From Minisyncoccota bacterium (GTDB taxonomy: Bacteria; Patescibacteriota; Minisyncoccia; Phycocordibacterales; UBA9973), in the NCBI GenBank assembly GCA_041674285.1, contig JBAYVZ010000003.1:20606-84605 (forward strand): DNA of 64,000 nt. The letters run 5' to 3'. Positions 5,092-47,742 of the stretch are shown here, one piece after another. Positions within the stretch are counted from its first letter, which is position 1; every line of letters starts with the position of its first letter. Made by a program: the position numbers and the translations under genes. The notes under the pieces were generated by a model. That model ran no database searches, had not been told where the DNA came from, and was given only the letters and a program-made list of their open reading frames with translations.

Positions 5092-5095
5092 CTTG

Positions 5096-5169
5096 TCCGC
5101 CTGCTTGGATTCGAACCAAGGACCCCAGAGGTATAAGCTCTGTGCTCTAACCAACTGAGCTACAGGCGG
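5096..5169 (-). tRNA. tRNA with anticodon UAU (Ile-like body; would read AUA); CCA not encoded
   Basis: Cloverleaf read by hand: acceptor CCGCCTG/CAGGCGG, D-arm GCTCAGTTGGTTAGAGC, anticodon stem CAGAG/CTCTG with loop CTTATAC, T-arm CTTGG-TTCGAAT-CCAAG. Confidence 0.7.
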
Positions 5170-5217: not shown

Positions 5218-7116
5218 CTAAACGGTTATAATTTCTGGATCTTTTAATTTCGGCTTTATTCCATGCTCAATTATTATCTTGTTGTATTCATCTTGCTCGA
5301 GAGTCTCTACCTCTATCAATTTCTTTGCTATAGCATCTAATATATGACGGTTCTCGGATAGGACCTTGCGGGCTACTTCTAGTGAATCATCCATAATTTT
5401 TTTCACTTCGCCATCTATCACCGCGCTCATCTTTTCAGAATACTCCTTATCATTCACTCCACGGCCGAACAAGGTCTTGCCTCCATCACTCTCGAGAGCT
5501 ATCGGACCGATACTATCACTCATACCCCATCGTGTGACCATAGCACGAGCTAGATTCGTTGCGACTTGTAGATCATTTGAAGGACCAGTAGTTATATCCC
5601 CTAGTATCATCTCCTCGGCTACATATCCACCGAGTGACATTGCTATATCATCGAGGAATTCTTTTTTACTTTGTAGCTTTCGATCTTCTAGTGGGAGCTT
5701 TAATGTATATCCACCAGCGCGTCCACGAGACACTATAGATGCTTTGTGAACTGGATCTGCGTATGGGAGTACTGATGCTACTAGTGCATGTCCTGCCTCG
5801 TGATATGCAGTGATTTCTTTTTCAGCTTTTGAGAGGAGGTGACTCTTGCGCTCTGGGCCCATCATCACCTTTTCAATAGAACGTATCAAATCATTTTGAG
5901 CTACAGTCTTGCGCTCTTCACGAGCAGCGAGGATCGCAGATTCATTCATCAGTGAGTACAAGTCGGCGCCAGAGAATCCGGGAGTTCTTTCTGCTATCAC
6001 CTTTAGATTCACATCTTCTGCAAATGGCTTCTTGCGAGCGTGGATAGAGAGTATCGCTTCACGATCAGATCGGTCAGGTAGGTCTAGAGTCACCCTACGA
6101 TCAAACCGACCTGGGCGTAGAAGTGCTGGATCGAGGACATCTGATCTATTTGTAGCAGCCATCACTATCACCTTTTCTGTCGGCTCGAATCCATCCATCT
6201 CCACTAGTATCTGATTGAGTGTCTGCTCACGTTCATCATTGCCGCCGCCGACACCCGTACCACGCACACGACCTACTGCATCTATCTCGTCGATAAATAC
6301 GATAGATGGTGAAGCCTTCTTGGCCATCTTGAATAGATCACGCACACGACTTGCTCCGACACCGACGAACATCTCTACGAATTCAGATCCAGACAGGTGG
6401 AAGAATGGCACCTCTGCCTCCCCTGCTACTGCACGAGCAAGCAGTGTCTTTCCAGTACCTGGATGTCCTGTGAGTAGTACTCCCTTTGGAATCTGCGCAC
6501 CGATATCTAGAAACTTTTTTGGATTCTTTAAAAAATCTACGATTTCTTCGAGCTCCTGCTTTGCCTCCTTTGCACCGGCCACATCTTTGAATGTTACTTT
6601 ATTTTTCTTGTCATCAGGATTTGTAATTCTTGCTTTTGATTGTCCAAAAGTAAAAGCTTGCATACCCTGCCCCTTGGCCTGGCGAGTCATCATCCATAGG
6701 AAGAATCCGATCAGTAGTACTGGCAATAGGAATGGCAAAATATTCATTAGCCAATACGTAAATCCACTCTCAGTCTTTACCTCTATCGGAGTAGTTGCCA
6801 ATTTTTCTGGAGTCACTCCATAGCGAGTCAGAGTTTCGGACATTGAATTCTCTAATTCCTTCTTTGTCTCACCCACTGTCTTGTCTTTGAATGTGACATT
6901 TACATCACTACCAGAGACCTCGATCTTCTCGATAGTGCCAGCATTTACCCCACTTGCCACATCGGCAATAGTCAGCTTCTTTACCTCTACCCCTGGTTTT
7001 GAGAGTGCACTGTAGGCAAGAGTTATCGCTACAAATATAAATATAGCTATAAAGATTTGTTGGCCAAATTTCGGTAATTGTTGTTTATTTTTCGATGTTT
7101 TTTTATTATTATCCAT
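5218..7116 (-). CDS. ftsH: ATP-dependent zinc metalloprotease FtsH
   Basis: N-terminal TMs; AAA Walker A GHPGTGKT; SRH; HEAGHAL zinc site. Confidence 0.95.
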
Positions 7117-7233
7117 CCCGTTAGAGATAGGTAATGCTTACATTACCGTATCTTATTAATATATATTAAAAATACGACATTCATTTTATAAATCACCCAA
7201 AATTAGAAAGATAACAAGCACATCTCTAACGGG
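7117..7233 (-). promoter_or_regulatory. structured 5' leader element, copy A (12-bp long-range stem CCCGTTAGAGAT/ATCTCTAACGGG enclosing the hairpin GGTAATG-CTTA-CATTACC), directly abutting the ftsH ATG
   Basis: One of three copies of the same architecture (others at 14029-14147 and 28018-28134), with compensatory changes in the stems. Confidence 0.55.
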
Positions 7234-12654: not shown

Positions 12655-14028
12655 TTAGCATTCTAGTATCACACTATCCCCCGCCATAGGAGTCTCGACA
12701 TTTATATCGAGATTATCCTTTAGTTTTTGAGCTAAGAACATAGCTGCCTTTGGCTCACCCATAACTACAAAAACTTTCTTTACAGTGCTAGCTGTGTCTG
12801 AGACGAATTCAAGCAGGTGGTCGGAATCTTTGTGTCCAGAGTATCCTGTAATCTTTTCCATACGGGCTGCAACCTTTACATCTTGACCTTGTATCCGGAT
12901 TATCTTGTGACCCTCCTCTATAGAGCGACCCAGAGTACCTACAGCCTGATAACCGATCAGGAGCAGTGTATTCTTTGGGTCAGGCAAATAATTCTTCTCG
13001 TGATGAATTATTCTACCCCCATTACTCATACCGGACCCTGCTATGATAATCTTGGGATTTGGAGATCGTAGTATTGCCTTGGATTCTTCTGTATCTGGTG
13101 TGATTTTGAGCCCCGGGAAATTAAATATATCATCTCCACCCATAATCACTTTGCGGGCAGTCTCATTGAAGTACTTTTCATACTTTTTATAAATCTTGGT
13201 CAGAGTGATGGCCAGTGGTGAATCCAAGTATATAGGCATCACTGGTATCTCCTTTTTCTCAACAAAAAGATCTATCTCGTACATCAACTCTTGGGTCCTT
13301 TCTAGGGAGAATGATGGTATCATAAGAACTCCGCCCCTTTTGTAATTGTCCAATATAATTTGCTTTAATCTATCAGATCTAACCTCTCTATCCTCATGAT
13401 TTCTATCTCCATATACAGACTCCATAATCATGTAATCTGCATCTGTAATCTTTTCAGTATCTCGTAGTAGTGGAGACGGAGAATTACCTAGGTCACCAGT
13501 GAATACTATCTTCTTTCCGTTGTATACTACCTCGAGCATTCCAGATCCGAGGATATGCCCAGAATCCTTGTATGAGAATTGGAAGCCATGATCCACATTC
13601 ATAATTTGATGGTAATCGAGTACCTCCCATAGGGCCATCGCTTTTTTTGTATTCTCCATGATGTATATCAAGTCTAGGTGATGTATGACATCGTGAGAAA
13701 GTAGATGGTCTGTATCCTCGAGCATTGCCTCGGTAATATCACGAGTAGGTATAGTAGATACTATTTTACCCTGGAATCCTTCGTGGATGAGCTTTGGTAT
13801 AAGACCGATATGATCGATGTGCCCATGTGTAATAAAAAGTATATCAATCTCTTTTGGATCATAAGGAAATGCATCCCAGTTATTCTGATCAGCAGAGAGA
13901 GTCCCCTGCTCTAACCCACAATCAATCAAAAACTTCTTGCCATTGCCCTCTAATAAAAAATTTGCCCCCGTTACTGTACCTGTACCACCACAGAAAGTAA
14001 GCTTGAGATTTGTATCTTTTTGTTCCAT
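12655..14028 (-). CDS. MBL-fold beta-CASP ribonuclease (RNase J-like)
   Basis: HxHxDH motif (FITHGHIDHIG), beta-CASP region, 457 aa. Confidence 0.7.
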   Translation of the reverse strand: MEQKDTNLKLTFCGGTGTVTGANFLLEGNGKKFLIDCGLEQGTLSADQNNWDAFPYDPKEIDILFITHGHIDHIGLIPKLIHEGFQGKIVSTIPTRDITEAMLEDTDHLLSHDVIHHLDLIYIMENTKKAMALWEVLDYHQIMNVDHGFQFSYKDSGHILGSGMLEVVYNGKKIVFTGDLGNSPSPLLRDTEKITDADYMIMESVYGDRNHEDREVRSDRLKQIILDNYKRGGVLMIPSFSLERTQELMYEIDLFVEKKEIPVMPIYLDSPLAITLTKIYKKYEKYFNETARKVIMGGDDIFNFPGLKITPDTEESKAILRSPNPKIIIAGSGMSNGGRIIHHEKNYLPDPKNTLLLIGYQAVGTLGRSIEEGHKIIRIQGQDVKVAARMEKITGYSGHKDSDHLLEFVSDTASTVKKVFVVMGEPKAAMFLAQKLKDNLDINVETPMAGDSVILEC

Positions 14029-14147
14029 CCCGTTAGAAGTAGATAATCTTTAGATTATCGTACTTAAATTAAATAATAAAATCAAAATATCACGAATATC
14101 TTAATATAACTCCCGTAGCCAGAACAACATATGTGACTTCTAACGGG
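14029..14147 (-). promoter_or_regulatory. structured 5' leader element, copy C (outer stem CCCGTTAGAAGT/ACTTCTAACGGG; inner hairpin GATAATC-TTTA-GATTATC)
   Basis: Same architecture as copies A and B, with compensatory base changes in both stems. Confidence 0.5.
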
Positions 14148-24877: not shown

Positions 24878-25390
24878 TTATTTTACAAAACCAATACGTC
24901 TATTTTTGGGTTTTGATTCTTGCATTAAAAGCTGCTTGAGGACTTCAAAAACTTGACGGAGCTGGGTGTCGTATTTCTTCTCCATACCTTCTATTTTTTT
25001 TCTGAGTTTTATATTAGTTGAAAGTAATTCTCTAATCTTTGTAAATGTACGTATGATTTGAATATTTACTTGTATCGCCCTTTCACTATTTAAGATACTT
25101 GAAAGCATAGCTACACCTTGCTCGGTGAATACGTATGGTAATTGTGTTGAAAATTTAAGAGACTTTAGGTGGTCACAATTTGTGACCACCTTATCTTTCT
25201 CTTTACCATTTAATTGGAACATAAAATCTGATGGAAATCTTTTTATATTTCTCTTTACTGCTTGGTTTAAAACCTTAGTTTGAACACCGTAAAGAGAAGC
25301 TAGGTCAGTGTCCAACATAACTTTCTTCCCTCTTACTAGGAGTATATTACTGAGAATGATTTCATCTGGAATTAGAGTGACTTTCTTCAT
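24878..25390 (-). CDS. ORF6N-domain DNA-binding protein (KilA-N/antirepressor-like)
   Basis: ILLVRGKKVMLDTDLASLYGV.TK.LNQAVKRN..RFP.DFMFQL ... FTEQGVAMLSSIL.S.RA..VNI.IIR.F is the canonical ORF6N signature. Confidence 0.75.
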   Translation of the reverse strand: MKKVTLIPDEIILSNILLVRGKKVMLDTDLASLYGVQTKVLNQAVKRNIKRFPSDFMFQLNGKEKDKVVTNCDHLKSLKFSTQLPYVFTEQGVAMLSSILNSERAIQVNIQIIRTFTKIRELLSTNIKLRKKIEGMEKKYDTQLRQVFEVLKQLLMQESKPKNRRIGFVK

Positions 25391-26107: not shown

Positions 26108-26698
26108 TTATATTCCTAGAGATTTAATAATATCAGTGTGGACTTGTTCTACAGATTGCTCTCCATTTATAGTCACCATATTGTAACCAGATTTACCTTC
26201 AAAGTATTTCATAGATGGCAATACGTTATTTATGTATTCATCAAAACGTGTCTCTATACCCTCATCTGTGTCATCTGTACGGGCACGTAGCTTCATGCGC
26301 TTCATCGCTTCCTCCTTGCCAACTTCTATATATATAACGTGAATATTTTCACGACTATAAAACTGCATAGCTTTTTCAAAACTTTCAGACTGTGAAATTG
26401 TCCTAGGATATCCATCAGAAATAAAAGACATCTTCTCTGTCATATTAGAAATTAATATATTTGTGAAAAGACTTGTTGTTAGAAAATCTGGGGCAAGCAA
26501 TCCCTTTTCTGAGATTTTTTTGACCAGTTGACCAGTATAGCCCCCATTGTCTACAATCTTTCGATATTCTACCCCTGGAGATATATAGATAACGTCTTCT
26601 ACTAATTTGTGCTCACTCAGATATTTATCCAAGAGTTCACCTTGTGTCCCCTTGCCAGAACCTGCTATTCCAAAAAATATAAATGTGTATGGTTTCAT
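26108..26698 (-). CDS. adk: adenylate kinase-like nucleoside monophosphate kinase (start taken at MKPYTF)
   Basis: P-loop GIAGSGKGTQ; lies between secY and map. Confidence 0.65.
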   Translation of the reverse strand: MKPYTFIFFGIAGSGKGTQGELLDKYLSEHKLVEDVIYISPGVEYRKIVDNGGYTGQLVKKISEKGLLAPDFLTTSLFTNILISNMTEKMSFISDGYPRTISQSESFEKAMQFYSRENIHVIYIEVGKEEAMKRMKLRARTDDTDEGIETRFDEYINNVLPSMKYFEGKSGYNMVTINGEQSVEQVHTDIIKSLGI

Positions 26699-26712
26699 CT
26701 TATTAATATACC

Positions 26713-26745
26713 ATAAAAAATCCCTCAATTAAATGAGGGAATTTT
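26713..26745. terminator. hairpin AATCCCTCA-ATTAAA-TGAGGGAATT with flanking A/T runs between secY and adk
   Basis: Related to the identical hairpins at 31233 and 32302. Confidence 0.4.
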
Positions 26746-28017
26746 TTAGTACTCTCTCATCGAGAGCTCGGCTTCAATTTTCTTTATAATATCAAGCACT
26801 ACAGACACTACGATCAGGAGAGCTGTACCCCCTAGAGCAAAAGCAGTGATTCCAGTGATAGCCTTCATGACTAGAGGTAGAACAGCTATCACACCTAGGA
26901 ACACAGCTCCCATCAGAGTCACACGGTTCAATATCTTTGCGATATAGTCACGTGTAGCTATGCCTGGGCGGATACCTGGGATAAATGCACCGTTCTTCTG
27001 TAGATTCTCAGAAATTTGATTTGGATCAAATGTAACTGCTGTATAAAAATATGTAAATAGGAATACAAAAATAAAGTAGACTAGAGAGTATAACCATACA
27101 TTTTGTACGAACCATAGTAGAGCATCTCCTATTGCCTTTAATGTACCGTTTGACATCCCTGCTAGGAAATTACCAGCCATTTGAGGGAACAATAGTATAG
27201 ATAGAGCAAAGATTATAGGGATAACTCCTGATTGATTCACACGTAGAGGGATATAAGTCTCTGATCCACCAGTAGTAGCCCCACCACGGATTTGACGTGC
27301 ATAAGTCACTGGGATAGGACGCTCAGCCTCTGTGACAATAACTACACCCACGATTATCAATATTCCAACAACTAGGAATAGTAGGTACATAGGGATACTA
27401 GCTACATCAAAAGTAAATAGGAATTGATTCAACTCTTTATGGATATTCGCTACGATACCAGCAAAGATGATCAATGATACACCGTTACCAATACCAAATT
27501 CTGAAACTAGCTCACCGAGCCACATTAACAACATTGAACCAGCTACGATAACTGCTACGTTTGCAATCTGACCAAACACTGTTATATCACCGAGTACACC
27601 TTGCTGAGACAACAACATCATGAATGTAATACCTTGGATAATAGCAAGAGGTATAGTCAGTAGACGGCTGATGCGGTTGAATTTCTTCTTGCCAATCTCG
27701 CCATCTTCCTGATACATAGCCTTTATACGAGGTGACATGATAGTCACAAGCTGCATGATGATAGATGAAGTGATGTATGGGCCTACTCCAAGCATGATAA
27801 GAGAAAGATGAGACAATCCCCCACCAGAGAAGACATTCAATACTCCTAGGAATTGATTATTATTCAAAAACGCTTGTAGCTTCATAGCATCTACTCCAGG
27901 AATCGGAATAGCAGCTAGTAGACGAAACACCACCAATATAGCAAGAACAAACAAGACACGCTTTCGGAGCGCCTTGTCGGTAAAAACTGTTTTTATTTTA
28001 TGTAGAAACTTTTCCAT
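26746..28017 (-). CDS. secY: preprotein translocase subunit SecY
   Basis: 10-TM SecY sequence; after rplO. Confidence 0.95.
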   Translation of the reverse strand: MEKFLHKIKTVFTDKALRKRVLFVLAILVVFRLLAAIPIPGVDAMKLQAFLNNNQFLGVLNVFSGGGLSHLSLIMLGVGPYITSSIIMQLVTIMSPRIKAMYQEDGEIGKKKFNRISRLLTIPLAIIQGITFMMLLSQQGVLGDITVFGQIANVAVIVAGSMLLMWLGELVSEFGIGNGVSLIIFAGIVANIHKELNQFLFTFDVASIPMYLLFLVVGILIIVGVVIVTEAERPIPVTYARQIRGGATTGGSETYIPLRVNQSGVIPIIFALSILLFPQMAGNFLAGMSNGTLKAIGDALLWFVQNVWLYSLVYFIFVFLFTYFYTAVTFDPNQISENLQKNGAFIPGIRPGIATRDYIAKILNRVTLMGAVFLGVIAVLPLVMKAITGITAFALGGTALLIVVSVVLDIIKKIEAELSMREY

Positions 28018-28134
28018 CCTGTTAGAGATAGGTAGTCAAAAGACTACCGTATCTTATTAATTATTGTAAATAATATATATTATAAATAAACTCTCTAATC
28101 TATCTTATAAAACAACAAACGAATCTCTAACAGG
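28018..28134 (-). promoter_or_regulatory. structured 5' leader element, copy B (outer stem CCTGTTAGAGAT/ATCTCTAACAGG; inner hairpin GGTAGTC-AAAA-GACTACC), filling the rplO-secY spacer
   Basis: Same architecture as copies A and C; the C-to-T change in the 5' arm is compensated by G-to-A in the 3' arm. Confidence 0.55.
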
Positions 28135-30505: not shown

Positions 30506-30691
30506 TTACCAAGAAGACTTGCGTACGCCTGGTAGCATACCTTCATTTGCCATTTCACGGAAGCAGATACGACATAGACCGAAATCTCTCATAAATGCAT
30601 GCCCACGACCACAACGAAAACAACGATTTGTCTCTCGAGATGTAAACTTACTCTTCTTTAAATGTCTTGCTATAACTGATGTTTTTGCCAT
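30506..30691 (-). CDS. rpsZ: 30S ribosomal protein S14 type Z (zinc-binding, 61 aa)
   Basis: MAKTSVIAR...C.RCG...CR.CFRE; the longer ORF to 30805 is an N-terminal over-extension. Confidence 0.85.
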
Positions 30692-30892
30692 ATTATAATT
30701 TATCTTAATAAAACTGCCCCAAGGACCGTCCTTGGGATATGATTGCGATATCTCATTCCTTTTCTTAAAAGTATTATCTCTTAAGGAGAAGAACGGATCT
30801 ATCAATCACGTCCCCCTATCCTATCAGATAGGTAGGATAATGTCAAATAAAAAAGCAGCATTATGTTTTCAGGCATAATACTGCTCTCTCTT

Positions 30893-31159
30893 TTAGTGAC
30901 CCTTAGCTGGTGGTTTCCTTTTAAAGAAAACCTTTGTCCAAAGGAGATAAACTCCTAAGGACATTATCACTAGTTGCATAACCCCTGCAACTAGGTTACT
31001 TAGCATTATCTTAATGCTAAGAGTGAAGGAATCGATCTCACGGACGTACGATTCTGGCGAGATCAAATGCCAGAAAAATAATACTATAAACCCTATAATA
31101 AGGGCGAAACCTGCGAACCACCTTGGGCTCGTTAGGATCCTAATCCAAAGTTCTCTCAT
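30893..31159 (-). CDS. small membrane protein (2 TM) inserted within the r-protein operon
   Basis: 88-aa ORF with two hydrophobic helices; sits between rpsZ and the DUF5672-like gene. Confidence 0.4.
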   Translation of the reverse strand: MRELWIRILTSPRWFAGFALIIGFIVLFFWHLISPESYVREIDSFTLSIKIMLSNLVAGVMQLVIMSLGVYLLWTKVFFKRKPPAKGH

Positions 31160-31232
31160 TTGTGTATATTATACACCTTTTCATCAATTTTGTCAATATT
31201 GGATAAATACCCTATTTTATAAGGCTAAACAC

Positions 31233-31258
31233 AATAAAATCCCTCAGATGAGGGATTT
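31233..31258. repeat. hairpin AAAATCCCTCA-GAT-TGAGGGATTT, downstream flank of the inserted gene
   Basis: Identical to the hairpin at 32302-32328. Confidence 0.7.
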
Positions 31259-32276
31259 AGAACAATTTTTTACTTTCAGTCACCTCCAATGGTATTGATT
31301 TAGTGCAAAGATAGAAATTGACCAATATTGAACCAACCTTGGTATTATATAAAACACTAGAATGTATCCCATTCATTGGATTGTCTGTATTTGACTCAGA
31401 TATATTCTCAATATCACCCGCTCGAGAATAATATTCTGCTCGCTTTTCAAGTATTTCTCTTATATCTTCATCTCTAAAAACGAGACAAACATTCAAATCT
31501 GTTTTGTTGTCTGAATTAAAAGAATACCCTTCTAGTGCGATATTTTCAAATACTCTTTTTATTTCTCTAAATTTAACAACTCTCCTACGTGGAAGAAAAA
31601 AAATCAAAGGAAAATCTGGGTATCTATTTACCAAGGTATCAATATTTTTATTAAATAAACCATGGAAACCAAAAGGCTTATCATACCAACCATAGTCCTC
31701 AACAACGCTAAATTTCATACCTAGTTCTGACTGAGCATATTTAACCCCCTCTTCTTCAAATAAGTCTCTGTACCACACACATAGTGCCACATCTTCAGCA
31801 TGGAATTTTGTAATCCTGCCTTCATTTGCAAACTTTTGCGAAAGTTCCAAAAACTTTTTACTTCGCAAGGAAAAACCACCATTACCTACGACAAACTTTG
31901 AGTCCGGCTTATTTCTATTTTTTTCTAACCAATGCATACCAGAAAGAGGTGCTCCAATATAGTCATATTCTAAAAATTCTGGGGTCCAACTTTCAGGATT
32001 TAAAACAAAACCATCATACTGAACCAATAGGACATAGTCCGTATCTACATAATCATTTAGATCTTGAATGCAAAATTTTGAAAAATCTTCTATTGATCCA
32101 ATATGTGGTATTTTTATTAATCTTTCATCATCTGATGATATTGAACTTAATAATTTAACAGAACCAAATTCAATACCCTTTTCAGAAATATCCATCGCAG
32201 CTATTAATCTTTCTATATTCACACAATCGATACCCAAAAGTGTAACATTTGGAAGTTGTATTCTACTCATATTCAT
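31257..32276 (-). CDS. hypothetical protein, possibly a DUF5672-like nucleotide-sugar transferase-like protein; inserted between rplE and rpsZ
   Basis: 339-aa ORF; family assignment from memory only (low); flanked by identical hairpins. Confidence 0.35.
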   Translation of the reverse strand: MNMSRIQLPNVTLLGIDCVNIERLIAAMDISEKGIEFGSVKLLSSISSDDERLIKIPHIGSIEDFSKFCIQDLNDYVDTDYVLLVQYDGFVLNPESWTPEFLEYDYIGAPLSGMHWLEKNRNKPDSKFVVGNGGFSLRSKKFLELSQKFANEGRITKFHAEDVALCVWYRDLFEEEGVKYAQSELGMKFSVVEDYGWYDKPFGFHGLFNKNIDTLVNRYPDFPLIFFLPRRRVVKFREIKRVFENIALEGYSFNSDNKTDLNVCLVFRDEDIREILEKRAEYYSRAGDIENISESNTDNPMNGIHSSVLYNTKVGSILVNFYLCTKSIPLEVTESKKLF

Positions 32277-32301
32277 ATAATACCATTTTAGAAACCAACA
32301 A

Positions 32302-32328
32302 AAAATCCCTCAGATGAGGGATTTTATG
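32302..32328. repeat. hairpin AAAAATCCCTCA-GAT-TGAGGGATTTT, upstream flank of the inserted gene
   Basis: Identical stem and loop to 31233-31258. Confidence 0.7.
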
Positions 32329-32336
32329 GAAACAGA

Positions 32337-32876
32337 TTATTTCTTGAATGGTACACCGATGAGTTCAAAGAATTTTGTTGCTTCAGGCTTTGTCTTGGCT
32401 GTAGTCACGATTGTAACTGCCATACCGAATACATCCTTTAGCTCTTCATCCCCTGTCTCTGGAAAGATTGTGTGTTCCTTTATAGACATAGTTAGATTAC
32501 CGATATCATCTACGATCTTTCTCTCGATACCACGAAAGTCTTTTGTACGAGGGATAGCTACATTGATTAGCTTGTCTAGGAATCCGTACATACGAGCTCC
32601 ACGTAGAGTAACAACTACACCGATCGGATCACCTGTACGAATCTTGAATGATGCGACAGATTTCTTTGCACCGCGTAGAGATGGCTTTTGACCAGTGATC
32701 TTTGCGATACGATCCATGATGAACTTGTTGCGATCCTTGTCGCGCTTGATACCAGAACCAGTACCAACAGCAACAACAACCTTTGTAAGGCGAGGTGCAG
32801 CCATACTACTCTTGTAGCCAAATTCACCCTTGAGTGTACTGTATGCTTTCTTTTCTTTTATCTTTGTTGTTTCCAT
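32337..32876 (-). CDS. rplE: 50S ribosomal protein L5
   Basis: Conserved L5 sequence. Confidence 0.9.
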   Translation of the reverse strand: METTKIKEKKAYSTLKGEFGYKSSMAAPRLTKVVVAVGTGSGIKRDKDRNKFIMDRIAKITGQKPSLRGAKKSVASFKIRTGDPIGVVVTLRGARMYGFLDKLINVAIPRTKDFRGIERKIVDDIGNLTMSIKEHTIFPETGDEELKDVFGMAVTIVTTAKTKPEATKFFELIGVPFKK

Positions 32877-33098: not shown

Positions 33099-33227
33099 AT
33101 ATTTTCTAAATTTTATAATTTTTAATTTTGTAATTTCTAAATAATTTTTTAATGTAATAATTTTTAAACATTGAAGTTTGGGTCATTATTTAAAAATTAA
33201 AAATTGGAAATTAAAAATTCTTGTTAC

Positions 33228-35387: not shown

Positions 35388-35735
35388 TTATTTCTTCTTA
35401 GTATCAGCTGTCGTAGCCTTTGCGGACTTTGCGGCTGTAATCTCAGCTTCTTTCTTCTTCTGCTCTAATTCTTTCTGCATCTTACCTCCGTGACGTACGA
35501 ATTTCTTTGTAGGAGAGAATTCACCCAATCGGTGACCTACCATGTCTTCTGAAACCAGAACTTCGACATGAGTCTTACCATTGTGCACCCCAAACATAAA
35601 ACCTACCATCACTGGCGATATAACGCACGCACGAGACCATGTTTTAATCATGCCTGTCTCGATTGGCTTTTTTCCGGCAATCTTTTTCAAGAGCCTTTCG
35701 TCTACATATGGACCTTTTTTTAGTGATCTTGTCAT
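35388..35735 (-). CDS. rpsS: 30S ribosomal protein S19
   Basis: Conserved S19 sequence; normally adjacent to rplB, here separated from it by ~7.9 kb. Confidence 0.9.
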
Positions 35736-35839
35736 AACAATATAAAGAAGCTCTAACTGAGCTCGTAGGGTTATACTAGCAAATTTAAAATAATTGTCAA
35801 ATTTATCCCCCTACCCCATTTAACCCAATGTACATAGGA

Positions 35840-35881
35840 TTGTTTTTTTACCCAAATGTGGTACTGTAAAAGAAAAATTCT
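35840..35881 (+). promoter_or_regulatory. repeated 42-nt leader/promoter element ttgtttttttRcccaaatgtggtactgtaaaagaaaaattct (copy 1, upstream of the pyrD-like gene)
   Basis: Near-identical to 38219-38260; a partial third copy lies before 37019. Confidence 0.45.
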
Positions 35882-36886: not shown

Positions 36887-37018
36887 AATCCCATTTTTAA
36901 AAAAAATAGAAAGTCCTGTTTTGCTTGCGCAAAACAGGACTTCTTGCTTTCTGGGTCCAAAAAGGCTAATCTAAAAGAAAAATTTCTAAATTAAATCACT
37001 TCTTTAAACAACTAAATT

Positions 37019-38196: not shown

Positions 38197-38228
38197 CCTA
38201 TGCATATAATGCATAGGGTTGTTTTTTT
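38197..38228 (+). terminator. terminator hairpin CCCTATGCATATAATGCATAGGG + T-run
   Basis: Perfect palindrome followed by TTGTTTTTTT; its T-run merges into copy 2 of the 42-nt element. Confidence 0.65.
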
Positions 38229-38293
38229 GCCCAAATGTGGTACTGTAAAAGAAAAATTCTTAATTTTAAATCACTCTTTAAACAATTAAATTT

Positions 38294-41061: not shown

Positions 41062-41170
41062 CACATTCACCAAAACAAAAAAATCCCTTACGATTCATTC
41101 GTAAGGGACTTTTTTATTTAAGCTTACAACTGTATAGAACAAAAAGCACCCGTATGGGTGCTTTTTTATA

Positions 41171-43314: not shown

Positions 43315-43570
43315 CAGCTATAGTGATTTTTTTCGAACCACCATTCTTGGGGTTTCTAGACTCCCCAAGAACACTGATACGAAAACAAACACCAGATCTC
43401 GTATTTGAGAGCTGGTGTTTGTTTTGAGTTAGTTTCTTAGTTTAATTAAATATCAACGCAAATATCAGCTTTCAAATTTGAAAGCTTCCAGAAGATGACA
43501 TATGCGATATTGTTGATATTTCTATCCATAATTTATTTATAGCATGTATATAAATTTATGCAAGAATACA

Positions 43571-43602
43571 AAAAAGCACCCAATGGGTGCTTTTTGTGAT
43601 AG
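43571..43602. terminator. terminator hairpin AAAAAAGCACCCAATGGGTGCTTTTT immediately after rplB
   Basis: Separates rplB from the inserted island. Confidence 0.65.
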
Positions 43603-43621: not shown

Positions 43622-44467
43622 CTATTTCTTTGCTTTACCAACACGTCGTCGTGAGACAATGTGCATATTTGAGTATTTCTTTGGTGTACGAGTCTTCTGG
43701 CCCTTTCCAGATGGCTTTCCCCACATAGTCTTGGCACGGCGTAGACCTCGTCCTTGAGCTCCTTCACCTCCTCCGTATGGGTGGTCTACAGGGTTCATGG
43801 CACTTCCACGTACTGTAGGGCGGATACCCTTCCAGCGTGAACGTCCAGCTTTACCAAAATTCTGAAGATGGAATTCTCCATTTGAAACTTCACCGATACA
43901 TGCCCAGCAGTTTTCAGAAACTTTTCGAACTTCTGTAGATGGCATCTTGATGTTTGTAAAACCATCATCGTTTGCAACTACTTGTCCGAATACTCCTGCT
44001 GCACGTACTAGTTTTCCACCGTTACCTGGCTTTATCTCGATGTTGTATACAAATGTACCAACTGGGATAATCTTCAAAGGCATACGGTTTGCAACTGTTA
44101 GTGGTGCTTTTTCTCCGACTGTAAACTTGTCCCCTACTTTTACAGACTTTGGAACCACTACATAACGCTTTTCTCCGTCAGCATATACTGCAAGACCGAT
44201 AAATGCATTTCTGTTTGGATCGTATTCTATAGAAGTTATCTTTGCTGGGATATCATGCTTGTTGTACATAAAGTCAACTTCACGATACAGACGCTTGTGA
44301 CCACCCCCCTTGTGGCGAGTAGTGATGCGACCCTGGTGATTGCGTCCAACTGAACGCTTGAAACCGTGAGTCAAAGATTTTTCAGGTGTACTTGTTGTAA
44401 GAACATTGCGGTATGAGACAGTAGTCTGATGACGCTTTGATGGTGTTGTAGGTTTATATGTTTTCAT
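43622..44467 (-). CDS. rplB: 50S ribosomal protein L2
   Basis: Conserved L2 sequence. Confidence 0.95.
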   Translation of the reverse strand: MKTYKPTTPSKRHQTTVSYRNVLTTSTPEKSLTHGFKRSVGRNHQGRITTRHKGGGHKRLYREVDFMYNKHDIPAKITSIEYDPNRNAFIGLAVYADGEKRYVVVPKSVKVGDKFTVGEKAPLTVANRMPLKIIPVGTFVYNIEIKPGNGGKLVRAAGVFGQVVANDDGFTNIKMPSTEVRKVSENCWACIGEVSNGEFHLQNFGKAGRSRWKGIRPTVRGSAMNPVDHPYGGGEGAQGRGLRRAKTMWGKPSGKGQKTRTPKKYSNMHIVSRRRVGKAKK

Positions 44468-46542: not shown

Positions 46543-47742
46543 CTACGCAATTATCTTTGTTACGACACCAGCACCGACTGTCTTACCTCCTTCACGGATA
46601 GCAAAGTGTGTTTGATCTTCGAGAGCTACAGGAGTAACTAGTTTTACCTTTAGTTTTACTGTATCGCCTGGCATAACCATCTCTACTCCCTCTGGAAGTG
46701 TTGATTCACCTGTTACGTCAGTTGTACGGATGTAAAATTGTGGCTTGTAACCAGTAAAGAATGGAGTGTGGCGACCACCTTCCTCCTTCTTTAGAACGTA
46801 AACTTCACATTCAAATTCTGAGTGTGGAGTAACTGAACCGATTTTAGCAAGAACTTGTCCACGAGTGATATCTTCTTTTTTGATACCACGGATAAGGATA
46901 CCTGCGTTGTCGCCAGCCATACCTTCTTTTAGGTTTTTGTTGAACATTTCGATACCAGTAACTGTAGTCTTTACAGTGTCCTTGATTCCGACGATTTCTA
47001 CGTCTTCACCAACTTTCACGATACCACGCTCGATTTTACCTGTAACCACTGTTCCACGTCCTTCGATAGAAAAGATATCTTCGATTGGCATTAGGAATGG
47101 CTTTGTAACATCGCGTTATGGTTGTGGGATGTATGTATCTAGAGCATTTGCAAGATCTAGGATCTTCTTTGCCCATTCATCATTGTTATCTGCTGATTCT
47201 AGGGCCTTTAGAGCTGAACCACGGATAACTGGAGTGTTTGCACCATCGTAACCGTTCTTTGTAAGCAATTCACGTAGTTCTTCTTCAACAAGTTCCAACA
47301 TGTCTGCGTCATCCACCATGTCACACTTGTTAAGAAATACGACGAATTGTGGCACACCAACCTGCTTTGCTAGGAGCACGTGTTCACGTGTCTGTGGCAT
47401 TGCACCGTCAGTAGCTGCAACAACAAGAATAGCACCGTCCATTTGAGCGGCACCAGTAATCATGTTTTTGATGTAGTCAGCGTGACCTGGAGCATCGATG
47501 TGAGCGTAGTGGCGAGCTGGTGTCTCATATTCATTGTGAGACAAAGCGATTGTGATTCCACGAGCTTTTTCTTCAGGAGCTGAGTCAATATCACCCACCC
47601 CCTTTAGTTTTGCACTATATCCACCACCTTGGCGAGCCAATGTGTTAAGGATTGCTGCTGTTAAAGTCGTCTTGCCGTGGTCAACGTGGCCAATAGTACC
47701 AACGTTTACGTGCGGCTTTGAACGATTAAATTCTTCTGCCAT
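46543..47742 (-). CDS. tuf: elongation factor Tu interrupted by a single in-frame TAA (47116-47118): possible pseudogene, sequencing error or recoding site
   Basis: ORFs 47116..47742 and 46543..47091 are in the same frame and read ...[22 protein letters not shown]..., colinear with EF-Tu (..[21 protein letters not shown].. in Thermus). Confidence 0.85.

Follow-up and report, generated by a model that had tools for sequence, protein, structure and literature searches.

Identical predicted terminator hairpins around an accessory gene at a split junction of the S10-spc ribosomal protein cluster in Paceibacteria

Introduction

Between rplE and rpsZ in a Minisyncoccota bacterium, a gene encoding a DUF5672 protein is bracketed by two identical hairpins, and the question raised by this locus is how such an arrangement arose inside a ribosomal protein (r-protein) gene cluster. 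In bacteria the S10-spc cluster usually ranks with the most compact and syntenic loci, and it serves as a syntenic marker block for phylogeny and binning in the candidate phyla radiation (CPR). The locus was studied in a stretch of 64,000 nucleotides (nt) of contig JBAYVZ010000003.1 (assembly GCA_041674285.1, positions 20,606 to 84,605), referred to below as the window. All coordinates are those of this 64-kb window, and the genes at the locus all lie on its minus strand. A preliminary description of the window had suggested insertion into an essential operon by a hairpin-targeting mechanism, or else recurrent attenuator structures.

The explanation preferred here, to which a probability of roughly 0.75 is given, has three parts. 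The hairpins (T1, after rplE, and T2, after the DUF5672 gene) would be intrinsic terminators; the cluster is divided after rplE throughout the clade, the gap acting as a hotspot for accessory genes; and T1 would have been copied as T2 around one such gene.

Layout of the locus

The motif AATCCCTCAGATGAGGGATT, counted in the window as the exact string AATCCCTCNNNNGAGGGATT, was present exactly twice, at 31238-31257 and 32304-32323 with a spacing of 1066 bp. It was absent from all 100 dinucleotide-preserving shuffles of the window, and the pair was also returned as repeat family D9. The observation that two identical hairpins surround the larger gene was therefore upheld, as was the view that they are copies of one another, since their identity spans 23 nt. 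These 23 nt form a perfect palindrome (AAAATCCCTCAGATGAGGGATTT). Direct comparison of the flanks of T1 and T2 gave no homology outside them, and the repeated unit is the palindrome itself and nothing more. The hairpins had been transcribed with a three-nucleotide GAT loop; the description was otherwise correct. The actual stem is 9-10 bp and the loop 4 nt, AGAT on the plus strand and AUCU on the transcribed strand.

The pair encloses a 339-aa DUF5672 open reading frame (ORF) between rplE and rpsZ. Both flanking genes had been named correctly, with Pfam matches to Ribosomal_L5 and L5_C and to Ribosomal_S14 respectively. The features of the locus, in the direction of transcription, are as follows.

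32337-32876, minus strand: rplE (L5), which closes the upstream transcription unit (Pfam Ribosomal_L5, L5_C).
32302-32325, minus strand: T1, predicted intrinsic terminator after rplE (AAAAUCCCUCAUCUGAGGGAUUUU then UUGUUGG), the ancestral copy (terminator scan, folding, comparison with locus L027).
32277-32285, minus strand: candidate extended -10 promoter TGgTATTAT of the DUF5672 gene (from reading of the sequence).
31257-32276, minus strand: DUF5672 gene, 339 aa, inserted cargo (Pfam PF18922).
31237-31258, minus strand: T2, putative copy of T1 ending the cargo gene, its stem overlapping the TAA stop (terminator scan, folding).
31168-31196, minus strand: predicted sigma-70 promoter of the 88-aa unit, perfect consensus TTGACA-17-TATAAT (promoter scan, 12/12).
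30893-31159, minus strand: 88-aa ORF with two hydrophobic segments (ORF list).
30849-30890, minus strand: predicted terminator of the 88-aa unit, a 17-bp stem then U6 (fold -20.9 kcal/mol, z -5.6).
30818-30846, minus strand: TTGACA-17-TAGGAT plus a TG upstream, predicted promoter serving rpsZ-rpsH and the genes after them (promoter scan; counterpart in relatives).
30735-30811, minus strand: structured leader conserved ahead of rpsZ-rpsH, its core resembling the S8 site (covariance model, 69.7 bits, E 2e-15).
30717-30737, minus strand: terminator-like hairpin then UUUUAUU, between the leader and the rpsZ start (fold -13.1 kcal/mol, z -2.4).
30506-30691, minus strand: rpsZ (S14, zinc-ribbon type, 61 aa; Pfam Ribosomal_S14; start codon placed by alignment to relatives).

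The hairpins as intrinsic terminators

The stem of T1 comprises 10 bp, four of them GC pairs, and is followed by UUUU and then UUGUUGGUUU; that of T2 comprises 9 bp and is followed by UAUUGUGUUU, the coding strand downstream of T2 reading UUUUAUUGUGUUU. When read on the minus strand, each hairpin has a U-run directly 3' of it, and both were detected by the terminator scan. Folding gave -14.8 kcal/mol (z -3.6) for T1 and -13.1 kcal/mol (z -3.7) for T2. T1 starts 11 nt after the stop codon of rplE, and the stem of T2 includes the TAA of the cargo gene. These are the properties of coding-strand intrinsic terminators, and the suggestion that the hairpins are the signature of an insertion element was not borne out. 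T1 and T2 are thus predicted to be Rho-independent terminators on the coding strand rather than mobile-element signatures, and transcripts presumably end at both.

Relatives were collected by an L5-protein scan of GTDB species representatives, which gave 80 loci, all from Paceibacteria/'Nomurabacteria' metagenome-assembled genomes with L5 identities of 63-85%; individual loci and contigs are designated by L and a number. An orthologous hairpin after rplE is kept in 47-50 of about 81 relatives in strict scans, and in more by eye, with stems that vary. Such counts are lower bounds (32/81 at the strictest setting, 50/81 at a looser one with the hairpin no more than 100 nt from rplE), and the strict scans missed U-runs lying partly within A/U-extended stems. 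Close variants of the T1 hairpin follow rplE in L010, L015, L017 and L037. In L027 a hairpin identical to T1 (AAAAATCCCTCATCTGAGGGATTTTT) follows rplE in a gap of 185 nt that holds no insertion, and because it stands there without one, T1 is the orthologous, ancestral hairpin of rplE. T2 would then be the local copy.

The hairpin was also sought in metagenome contigs with the pattern AAATCCCTCANCTGAGGGATTT. This census returned 50 sites, spread over 49 contigs of 22 to 68% GC. At 45 of the 50 sites a long ORF ended no more than 80 nt away, the usual setting being a pair of convergent genes, and none of the 50 lay within a long ORF. Two copies in one contig were seen only in L131, which is of the same lineage as L001; the 22-mer was single-copy in the other 48 contigs. 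Given its position at gene ends in 45 of 50 sites and its single-copy occurrence, the hairpin is a recurrent terminator type and not a dispersed mobile repeat.

Two of the census sites, in the relatives L106 and L111, place a T1-type hairpin after secY. In the window itself a related hairpin between secY and adk, as claimed earlier, was confirmed (TCCCTCA-tttaat-TGAGGGA):

26721-26740, minus strand: predicted terminator after secY, related stem UCCCUCA/UGAGGGA (fold -19.4 kcal/mol, z -5.2).

The stems of T1, T2 and this secY terminator share UCCCUCA/UGAGGGA. The T1-type hairpins after secY in relatives could mean that a shared factor acts at operon breaks. On such grounds T1 and T2 might be regulated attenuators recognised by a common factor, read-through being modulated, for instance by a protein or by upstream translation, and coupling the DUF5672 gene, and perhaps rpsZ and the genes after it, to the ribosomal operon; read-through could add expression to a cargo gene that has neither a strong -35 box nor a Shine-Dalgarno sequence. 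This is judged improbable. Neither antiterminator pairing nor a leader peptide was evident around T1 and T2, the orthologous stems after rplE vary widely among relatives, which speaks against recognition of a particular sequence, rpsZ has a promoter and leader of its own in every relative, and the same hairpin sequence is found between convergent genes in unrelated organisms.

The rplE-rpsZ junction across the clade

The junction between rplE and rpsZ was never tight. The gap ranged from 144 to 4248 nt with a median of 1539 nt, and exceeded 100 nt in 51 of the 51 loci showing both genes; in several further loci rpsZ lay more than 6 kb from rplE. Other adjacent r-protein pairs had median gaps of 5-43 nt, with L2-S19 (median 602 nt) as the sole other exception. 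The shortest gaps (147-200 nt; L015, L016, L027, L032, L033 and L077) consist of a stop codon, a terminator hairpin, a promoter of the type TTGACN-17-TAGTAT, the leader and rpsZ. Insertion into an intact essential operon, as first proposed, is not what the comparison gives, since a terminator and a promoter split the junction in 51 of the 51 genomes with both genes. The S10-spc cluster is split after rplE across the whole clade, at a junction that is a predicted transcriptional break and a hotspot for accessory genes.

The content of the gap is variable. About 104 gap ORFs fell into 80 clusters, almost all mutually unrelated. The families comprise pilin-like and peptidoglycan-binding proteins, nucleotide kinases, a sigma factor, a helix-turn-helix/Gp49 pair and NUDIX, together with toxin-antitoxin pairs, a reverse transcriptase, Schlafen/AlbA and DUF4143. 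With a terminator on one side and a sigma-70 promoter and leader on the other, the gap would be insulated, and DNA inserted into it would do no polar harm. Because it is insulated on both sides, insertions would be tolerated, and different genomes would have gathered different accessory genes.

A second break is present in the window, where rplB (43622-44467) is separated from rpsS (which begins at 35735) by about 7.9 kb of pyrimidine-pathway and other genes. Within this insert, intergenic terminator/promoter modules are repeated (35833-35881 against 38212-38260, 96%; 36948-37018 against 38222-38292, 72%). They precede three neighbouring plus-strand genes, and local copying of regulatory modules appears to have taken place here.

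In a whole CPR class the cluster is thus broken at the same two places, rplE|rpsZ and rplB|rpsS, which act as hypervariable hotspots for accessory genes. Literature searches for an insertion hotspot in Patescibacteria returned nothing relevant. Hypervariable junctions within a marker block call for care with contig breaks, chimeric bins and assumptions about gene order.

The DUF5672 gene

The cargo protein matched Pfam PF18922 with an E-value of 1e-19 and 71.1 bits, against a gathering cut-off of 24.4. It is 339 aa long, or 337 aa from the second ATG, a start favoured by one gene caller and by the N-termini of homologues. The extended -10 box abuts the ATG and is identical in L001, L002 and L087; if this candidate box is used, it would predict a leaderless cargo mRNA starting at the second ATG.

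The label 'sugar-transferase-like' given to the protein holds at the level of the fold only. The AlphaFold model (pLDDT 88, pTM 0.83) had as its top Foldseek matches in the PDB chondroitin synthase, B3GalT6, GfsA, EXT1/2 and EXTL2 (E 3e-7 to 1e-4, TM 0.3-0.43), and a GT-A glycosyltransferase-like (Rossmann-like) fold is predicted. With regard to a catalytic DxD motif, the invariant residues noted are D88-G89-F90 and E161-D162.

Patescibacteria have proteins of the DUF5672 family in abundance (5556 hits), an additional nucleotidyltransferase domain is present in many of the relatives, and the closest protein outside this species is about 60% identical. The gene of the 60%-identical homologue that was examined (L003) does not lie near r-protein genes, has no such hairpin and ends 16 nt from a convergent gene. 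An exact-match search with the protein gave no record, a PDB sequence search gave nothing meaningful, and literature searches on DUF5672 gave nothing relevant.

A DUF5672 gene beside rplE was found in none of the 80 related loci. The GC content of the gene is 32% (23% at third codon positions), and that of the flanking r-protein genes 39-43%. Its absence from this site in relatives, the location of the homologue elsewhere in its genome and the GC content of 32% bear out the earlier proposal that it is inserted cargo, and at this site the gene was present in one species-level lineage only.

Strain-level comparison

Contigs L001, L002 and L131, from other samples, carry an r-protein block 98-100% identical to that of the window. 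The DUF5672 gene and both hairpins are present in all three, with the T1 loop AACT instead of AUCU, and the 88-codon unit that lies between T2 and the rpsZ promoter in the window is missing. L087 is the same as the window apart from one single-nucleotide polymorphism, and has the 88-codon unit. As the DUF5672 gene and both hairpins occur in all these strains, the insertion predates them; the 88-codon unit, being missing from the sister strains, is a later, strain-specific addition.

Compared with L001 and L002, the window differs by an indel of 373 bp, which is the 88-codon unit, and about 30 nt of the spacer in the rpsZ promoter have been replaced. Identity between strains is a mosaic, with r-protein genes at 99-100%, adk at about 70% and indels at gene junctions, which is a signature of recombinational segment replacement.

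Differences were also seen elsewhere in the window. The adk gene (26138-26703) is about 65-80% identical to the L001 allele, its neighbour secY about 99%, and the secY-adk spacer differs in length, which suggests that the adk allele was replaced by recombination. A 170-aa ORF6N (KilA-N-like) gene (24878-25390, minus strand), between a pyrH-like kinase gene and a 521-aa gene, is missing from the sister strain L001 and represents another strain-specific insertion at a gene junction. The spacer between rplN and rplX (33099-33227) is a very AT-rich, repetitive stretch of 129 nt in the window and measures 4 nt in L001.

Origin of the second hairpin

A second duplicated pair of hairpins was found at the other break in the window.

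43568-43595, minus strand: H2a, predicted terminator after rplB, first of the second duplicated pair (repeat family D14).
41139-41166, minus strand: H2b, nearly identical to H2a, at the end of a cargo block of two genes (repeat family D14).

H2a and H2b differ in the loop only and enclose two co-oriented cargo genes after rplB, encoding a 329-aa protein and an M20-peptidase-like protein of 361 aa. In L039, 2.7 kb of inserted genes follow rplE between two hairpins whose 16-nt arms are identical and whose loops differ, with a promoter after the second. Partial duplications of the terminator/promoter module were seen in L020 and L009.

From these comparisons the following sequence of events is proposed. 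A low-GC DUF5672 gene would have been inserted directly after T1, so that a second copy of the palindrome, T2, now abuts its stop codon and would keep the cargo insulated from the rpsZ promoter. The preferred origin of T2 is duplication of the whole palindrome at insertion, via staggered or structure-specific breaks at the base of an extruded hairpin; this step is less certain than the insulation of the gap. Selection would then have kept the stems while the loops drifted, as the loop differences in L001, H2a/H2b and L039 suggest. Whole gap alleles would have been exchanged between strains by homologous recombination in the conserved r-protein flanks, spreading or replacing cargo. Later, the 373-bp unit (a consensus promoter, the 88-codon ORF or structured RNA, and a strong terminator) would have been added between T2 and the rpsZ promoter.

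Several observations weigh against this account. Terminator duplication is rare (at rplE-rpsZ, approximately 2-4 of about 50 filled gaps; at rplB-rpsS, 1 of 32), so it is not the general route by which the hotspots were filled. An empty-site allele of the DUF5672 insertion was not found, and the junction could therefore not be compared before and after insertion. The replacement of about 30 nt of spacer beside the 88-aa unit is not a clean insertion, and points to allelic exchange rather than simple insertion. Finally, the copy number of two for the T1/T2 hairpin is a count over the 64 kb of the source genome in the window.

The grounds that had been named for dismissing the observation, a many-copy generic terminator together with genes common to relatives, were not borne out: the hairpin has two copies in the window, and the genes are not shared with relatives.

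T2 might instead have arrived with the cargo, the donor gene already ending in a like hairpin that recombined through short homology with the rplE terminator, with no target duplication. Terminators of the AAATCCCTCA.CTGAGGGATTT type are widespread and occur in the clade after secY, and recombinational segment replacement is frequent in the population (the adk allele at about 70%, the promoter spacer), both of which would favour such an import. Yet T1 and T2 are identical at 23 of 23 nt including the loop, although the nearest homologues elsewhere are about 60% identical and have no such hairpin. One shared homology of 23 nt would be insufficient to integrate a linear fragment, and H2a/H2b and L039 would each need the same explanation independently. 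Import of T2 with its gene is accordingly considered quite unlikely.

A further possibility is that a mobile system which targets hairpins (attC-like, IS200/IS605, REP/RAYT or Xer/dif-like; REP, repetitive extragenic palindromic; RAYT, REP-associated tyrosine transposase) recombines at this one. The DUF5672 gene would then be a mobile cassette, integrated at the hairpin by site-specific recombination so that a site was left on either side. Direct palindrome repeats that enclose exactly one gene would suit such a system, as would the recurrence of the pattern once more in the window and once in L039, and the 9-6-9 arm-centre-arm geometry, as read from the sequence, would fit a tyrosine-recombinase core site. 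The T1/T2, H2a/H2b and L039 pairs are, however, mutually unrelated in sequence and so share no site, loop lengths differ within pairs, which is unexpected for a conserved crossover region, and 48 unrelated contigs have the 22-mer just once, as a hairpin at a gene end. The repeat is a perfect palindrome of 23 nt rather than an element of 57-141 bp, and has neither extrahelical bases nor a GTTRRRY core. No recombinase or transposase was found among the scanned window ORFs or the listed families of gap ORFs: integrases, resolvases and Y1 or DDE transposases were absent at Pfam E <=1e-5 from about 50 non-ribosomal window ORFs of at least 90 aa (about 15 of which had no family), neither recombinases nor transposases were among the listed families of the 101 gap ORFs from relatives, a listing that gave 25 of 28 families in one batch, and the annotated context of L001 had no recombinase. 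A mobile-system site is regarded as highly unlikely.

Duplication of an rplE terminator around tolerated cargo remains the preferred explanation, and one extension of it may be considered. Palindromic terminators at cluster breaks could themselves be insertion targets, a structure-specific cut capturing DNA and duplicating the palindrome without an element-encoded recombinase. A palindrome-sized target-site duplication would account for the exact match of repeat and palindrome in T1/T2, H2a/H2b and L039, three pairs independent of one another. This extension is thought unlikely. Exact palindrome duplication offers a testable trace of how insulated cargo enters small, streamlined genomes without obvious mobile machinery.

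A candidate S8-responsive leader upstream of rpsZ

The leader of rpsZ in the window is about 120 nt long, with a conserved structured part of about 80 nt (30735-30811). In relatives, a promoter of the TTGACN-17-TAGTAT type stands where the window has its predicted rpsZ promoter. Forty-three distinct leader sequences could be aligned. Paired cells amounted to 84.9% (66.8% in shuffles), and the covariation score was 0.515 (0.194 in shuffles), a value reached by none of 500 shuffles; in a control in which the 3' partner was slid by 1-3 columns the score did not exceed 0.21. A covariance model gave one match in the window and 51 in related loci totalling 820 kb, one per locus and each immediately ahead of rpsZ(-rpsH). 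Loci with the leader fall in the range L007-L086. In L069 (1921-2733) the leader and rpsZ-rpsH lie upstream of rplE, the leader still directly upstream of rpsZ, and the leader has moved together with rpsZ-rpsH in the rearrangement.

The invariant core of the leader is 5'-R-A/G-U-C ... G-A-U-A-Y-Y-3', with the U and A bulged, and by sequence comparison corresponds to positions 596-599 and 639-644 of helix 21 in Escherichia coli 16S rRNA. In alignment columns 13-16 and 81-86 there is no variation, or almost none, at the nucleotides U, C, G, A, U and A. The pair 13-86 is GC in 23 sequences, AU in 18 and CG in 2, the pair 14-85 is AU in 40 and GC in 3, and neither is unpaired in any sequence. The core of the L038 leader, AGUC/GAUACU, is identical to that of E. 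coli. The S8-binding core of 16S helix 21 contains a (G597-C643)-U641 triple, the invariant A642 and an A596-U644 pair (PMC4176348). The leader is a candidate S8 autoregulatory site that mimics this helix 21 core.

Rfam searches of the window at gathering thresholds returned only tRNA and tmRNA. When Rfam was searched by E-value over 30650-32400, the matches were at chance level only (Phe_leader, E 0.2; a CRISPR direct repeat, E 3.8) and were rejected. No Rfam family matched the leader. Literature searches for an r-protein leader in Patescibacteria gave nothing relevant. If confirmed, the leader would, as judged from these Rfam and literature searches, be the first r-protein autoregulatory leader described in Patescibacteria, and would mean that S8 control had moved independently from rplE to rpsZ.

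The hairpin between the leader and rpsZ (30717-30737) occurs in this lineage and some relatives (L016, L049) without being general; one possible role is that of a leader-coupled attenuator.

The 88-codon unit

The smaller gene had been described as an 88-aa protein with two transmembrane segments. The ORF does exist and has two hydrophobic segments; it may, however, be a structured RNA instead. In favour of a protein, the 88-codon ORF fills the interval from promoter to terminator. The same region folds as approximately eight consecutive near-perfect hairpins (for example 30970-30994 and 30999-31021), and the fold z-score of the ORF body is -5.2, or -7.3 once the terminator is included, as compared with -2.0 for a coding control. 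The ORF is an orphan, its sole homologue cluster being a near-identical copy at 99% identity. To judge by its sequence, the unit may be a protein gene, a structured RNA, both, or a tightly folded toxin-type mRNA.

An origin from phage was considered for the inserted DNA and found no support: a 23-mer from the 88-codon unit was absent from viral contigs, and these held only one distant DUF5672 relative, at 41%. An analogous small unit lies between the rplE terminator and the rpsZ promoter in L017 (6537-6890), which is of another lineage, where a promoter, an ORF of about 25 codons for a hydrophobic peptide and a terminator were seen; part of the promoter (AGGGCTATC) is duplicated in that unit.

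Other observations in the window

The tuf gene (46543-47742, minus strand) has an in-frame TAA at 47116-47118 where relatives have Glu (IPQP*RDVTKPF), giving ORFs of 208 and 182 aa. An error of sequencing or of the consensus, a pseudogene or recoding could each account for the stop.

A motif of about 66 nt occurs on the minus strand at 7109-7174, 14021-14086 and 28010-28075, directly upstream of ftsH, a beta-CASP RNase J-like gene and secY. It contains a -10-like box, a hairpin of the GGTAATG..CATTACC type and the start-codon region, and may be a shared element of the 5' untranslated region.

A tRNA-Ile with the anticodon UAU was predicted by ARAGORN at 5095-5169 (minus strand). Most bacteria decode AUA with a lysidine-modified CAU tRNA instead.

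Comparison with known systems

What is presented as new is the occurrence of two fixed hotspots inside the S10-spc cluster of Paceibacteria, the occasional exact duplication of a terminator palindrome around cargo, and a candidate S8-responsive leader.

The leader resembles the S8 operator of the E. coli spc operon in being placed on the S8-encoding mRNA and in sharing U598, C599, G639, A640, U641 and A642 together with the pairs 596-644 and 597-643. The E. coli operator overlaps the start codon of rplE (PMC3616713), whereas the present element is a 5' leader of rpsZ behind its own promoter. It also differs in having the extra conserved helices P2 and P3 and a CUCC/GAAAA internal loop, and the equivalent of A595 is not conserved.

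Chromosomal hotspots of horizontal transfer were reportedly described by Oliveira et al. in Nature Communications in 2017. As in such integration hotspots, the rplE and rpsZ flanks are constant and the accessory content is unrelated, and allele mosaicism is consistent with recombination in the flanks. Unlike them, the rplE-rpsZ hotspot lies within the S10-spc cluster, with a second at rplB|rpsS, and no tRNA gene, integrase or prophage accompanies it.

Integron cassettes likewise consist of a single gene bounded by repeated hairpin-capable sites. Their attC sites are imperfect, 57-141 bp long, and have R''-L''/L'-R' arms, extrahelical bases and a GTTRRRY core. Here the site is a perfect 23-nt palindrome, IntI, attI and Pc are lacking, the cargo has its own apparent promoter, and the upstream copy is the neighbour's ancestral predicted terminator. 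A miniature inverted-repeat transposable element or other transposon was also considered and rejected: the gene between the direct copies of the palindrome is intact, no terminal inverted repeats extend past the palindrome, and the scanned ORFs include no transposase.

REP elements and bacterial interspersed mosaic elements with their RAYT proteins are similar in being short 3' intergenic palindromes able to stabilise or terminate transcripts and to be duplicated. The present hairpins differ from these in having two copies in 64 kb, each pair with its own sequence, and no RAYT-like gene among the scanned window ORFs.

The closest likeness is to terminators. Bidirectional A-tract/U-tract terminators are matched in that an upstream A-tract makes the T1/T2 element symmetric. 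With Rho-independent terminators in general, T1 and T2 share a GC-rich stem of 9-10 bp, a loop of 4 nt, a U-run and a position just past a stop codon. They differ from ordinary terminators in that two copies, identical over 23 nt, enclose one inserted gene, and one of the two overlaps its stop codon.

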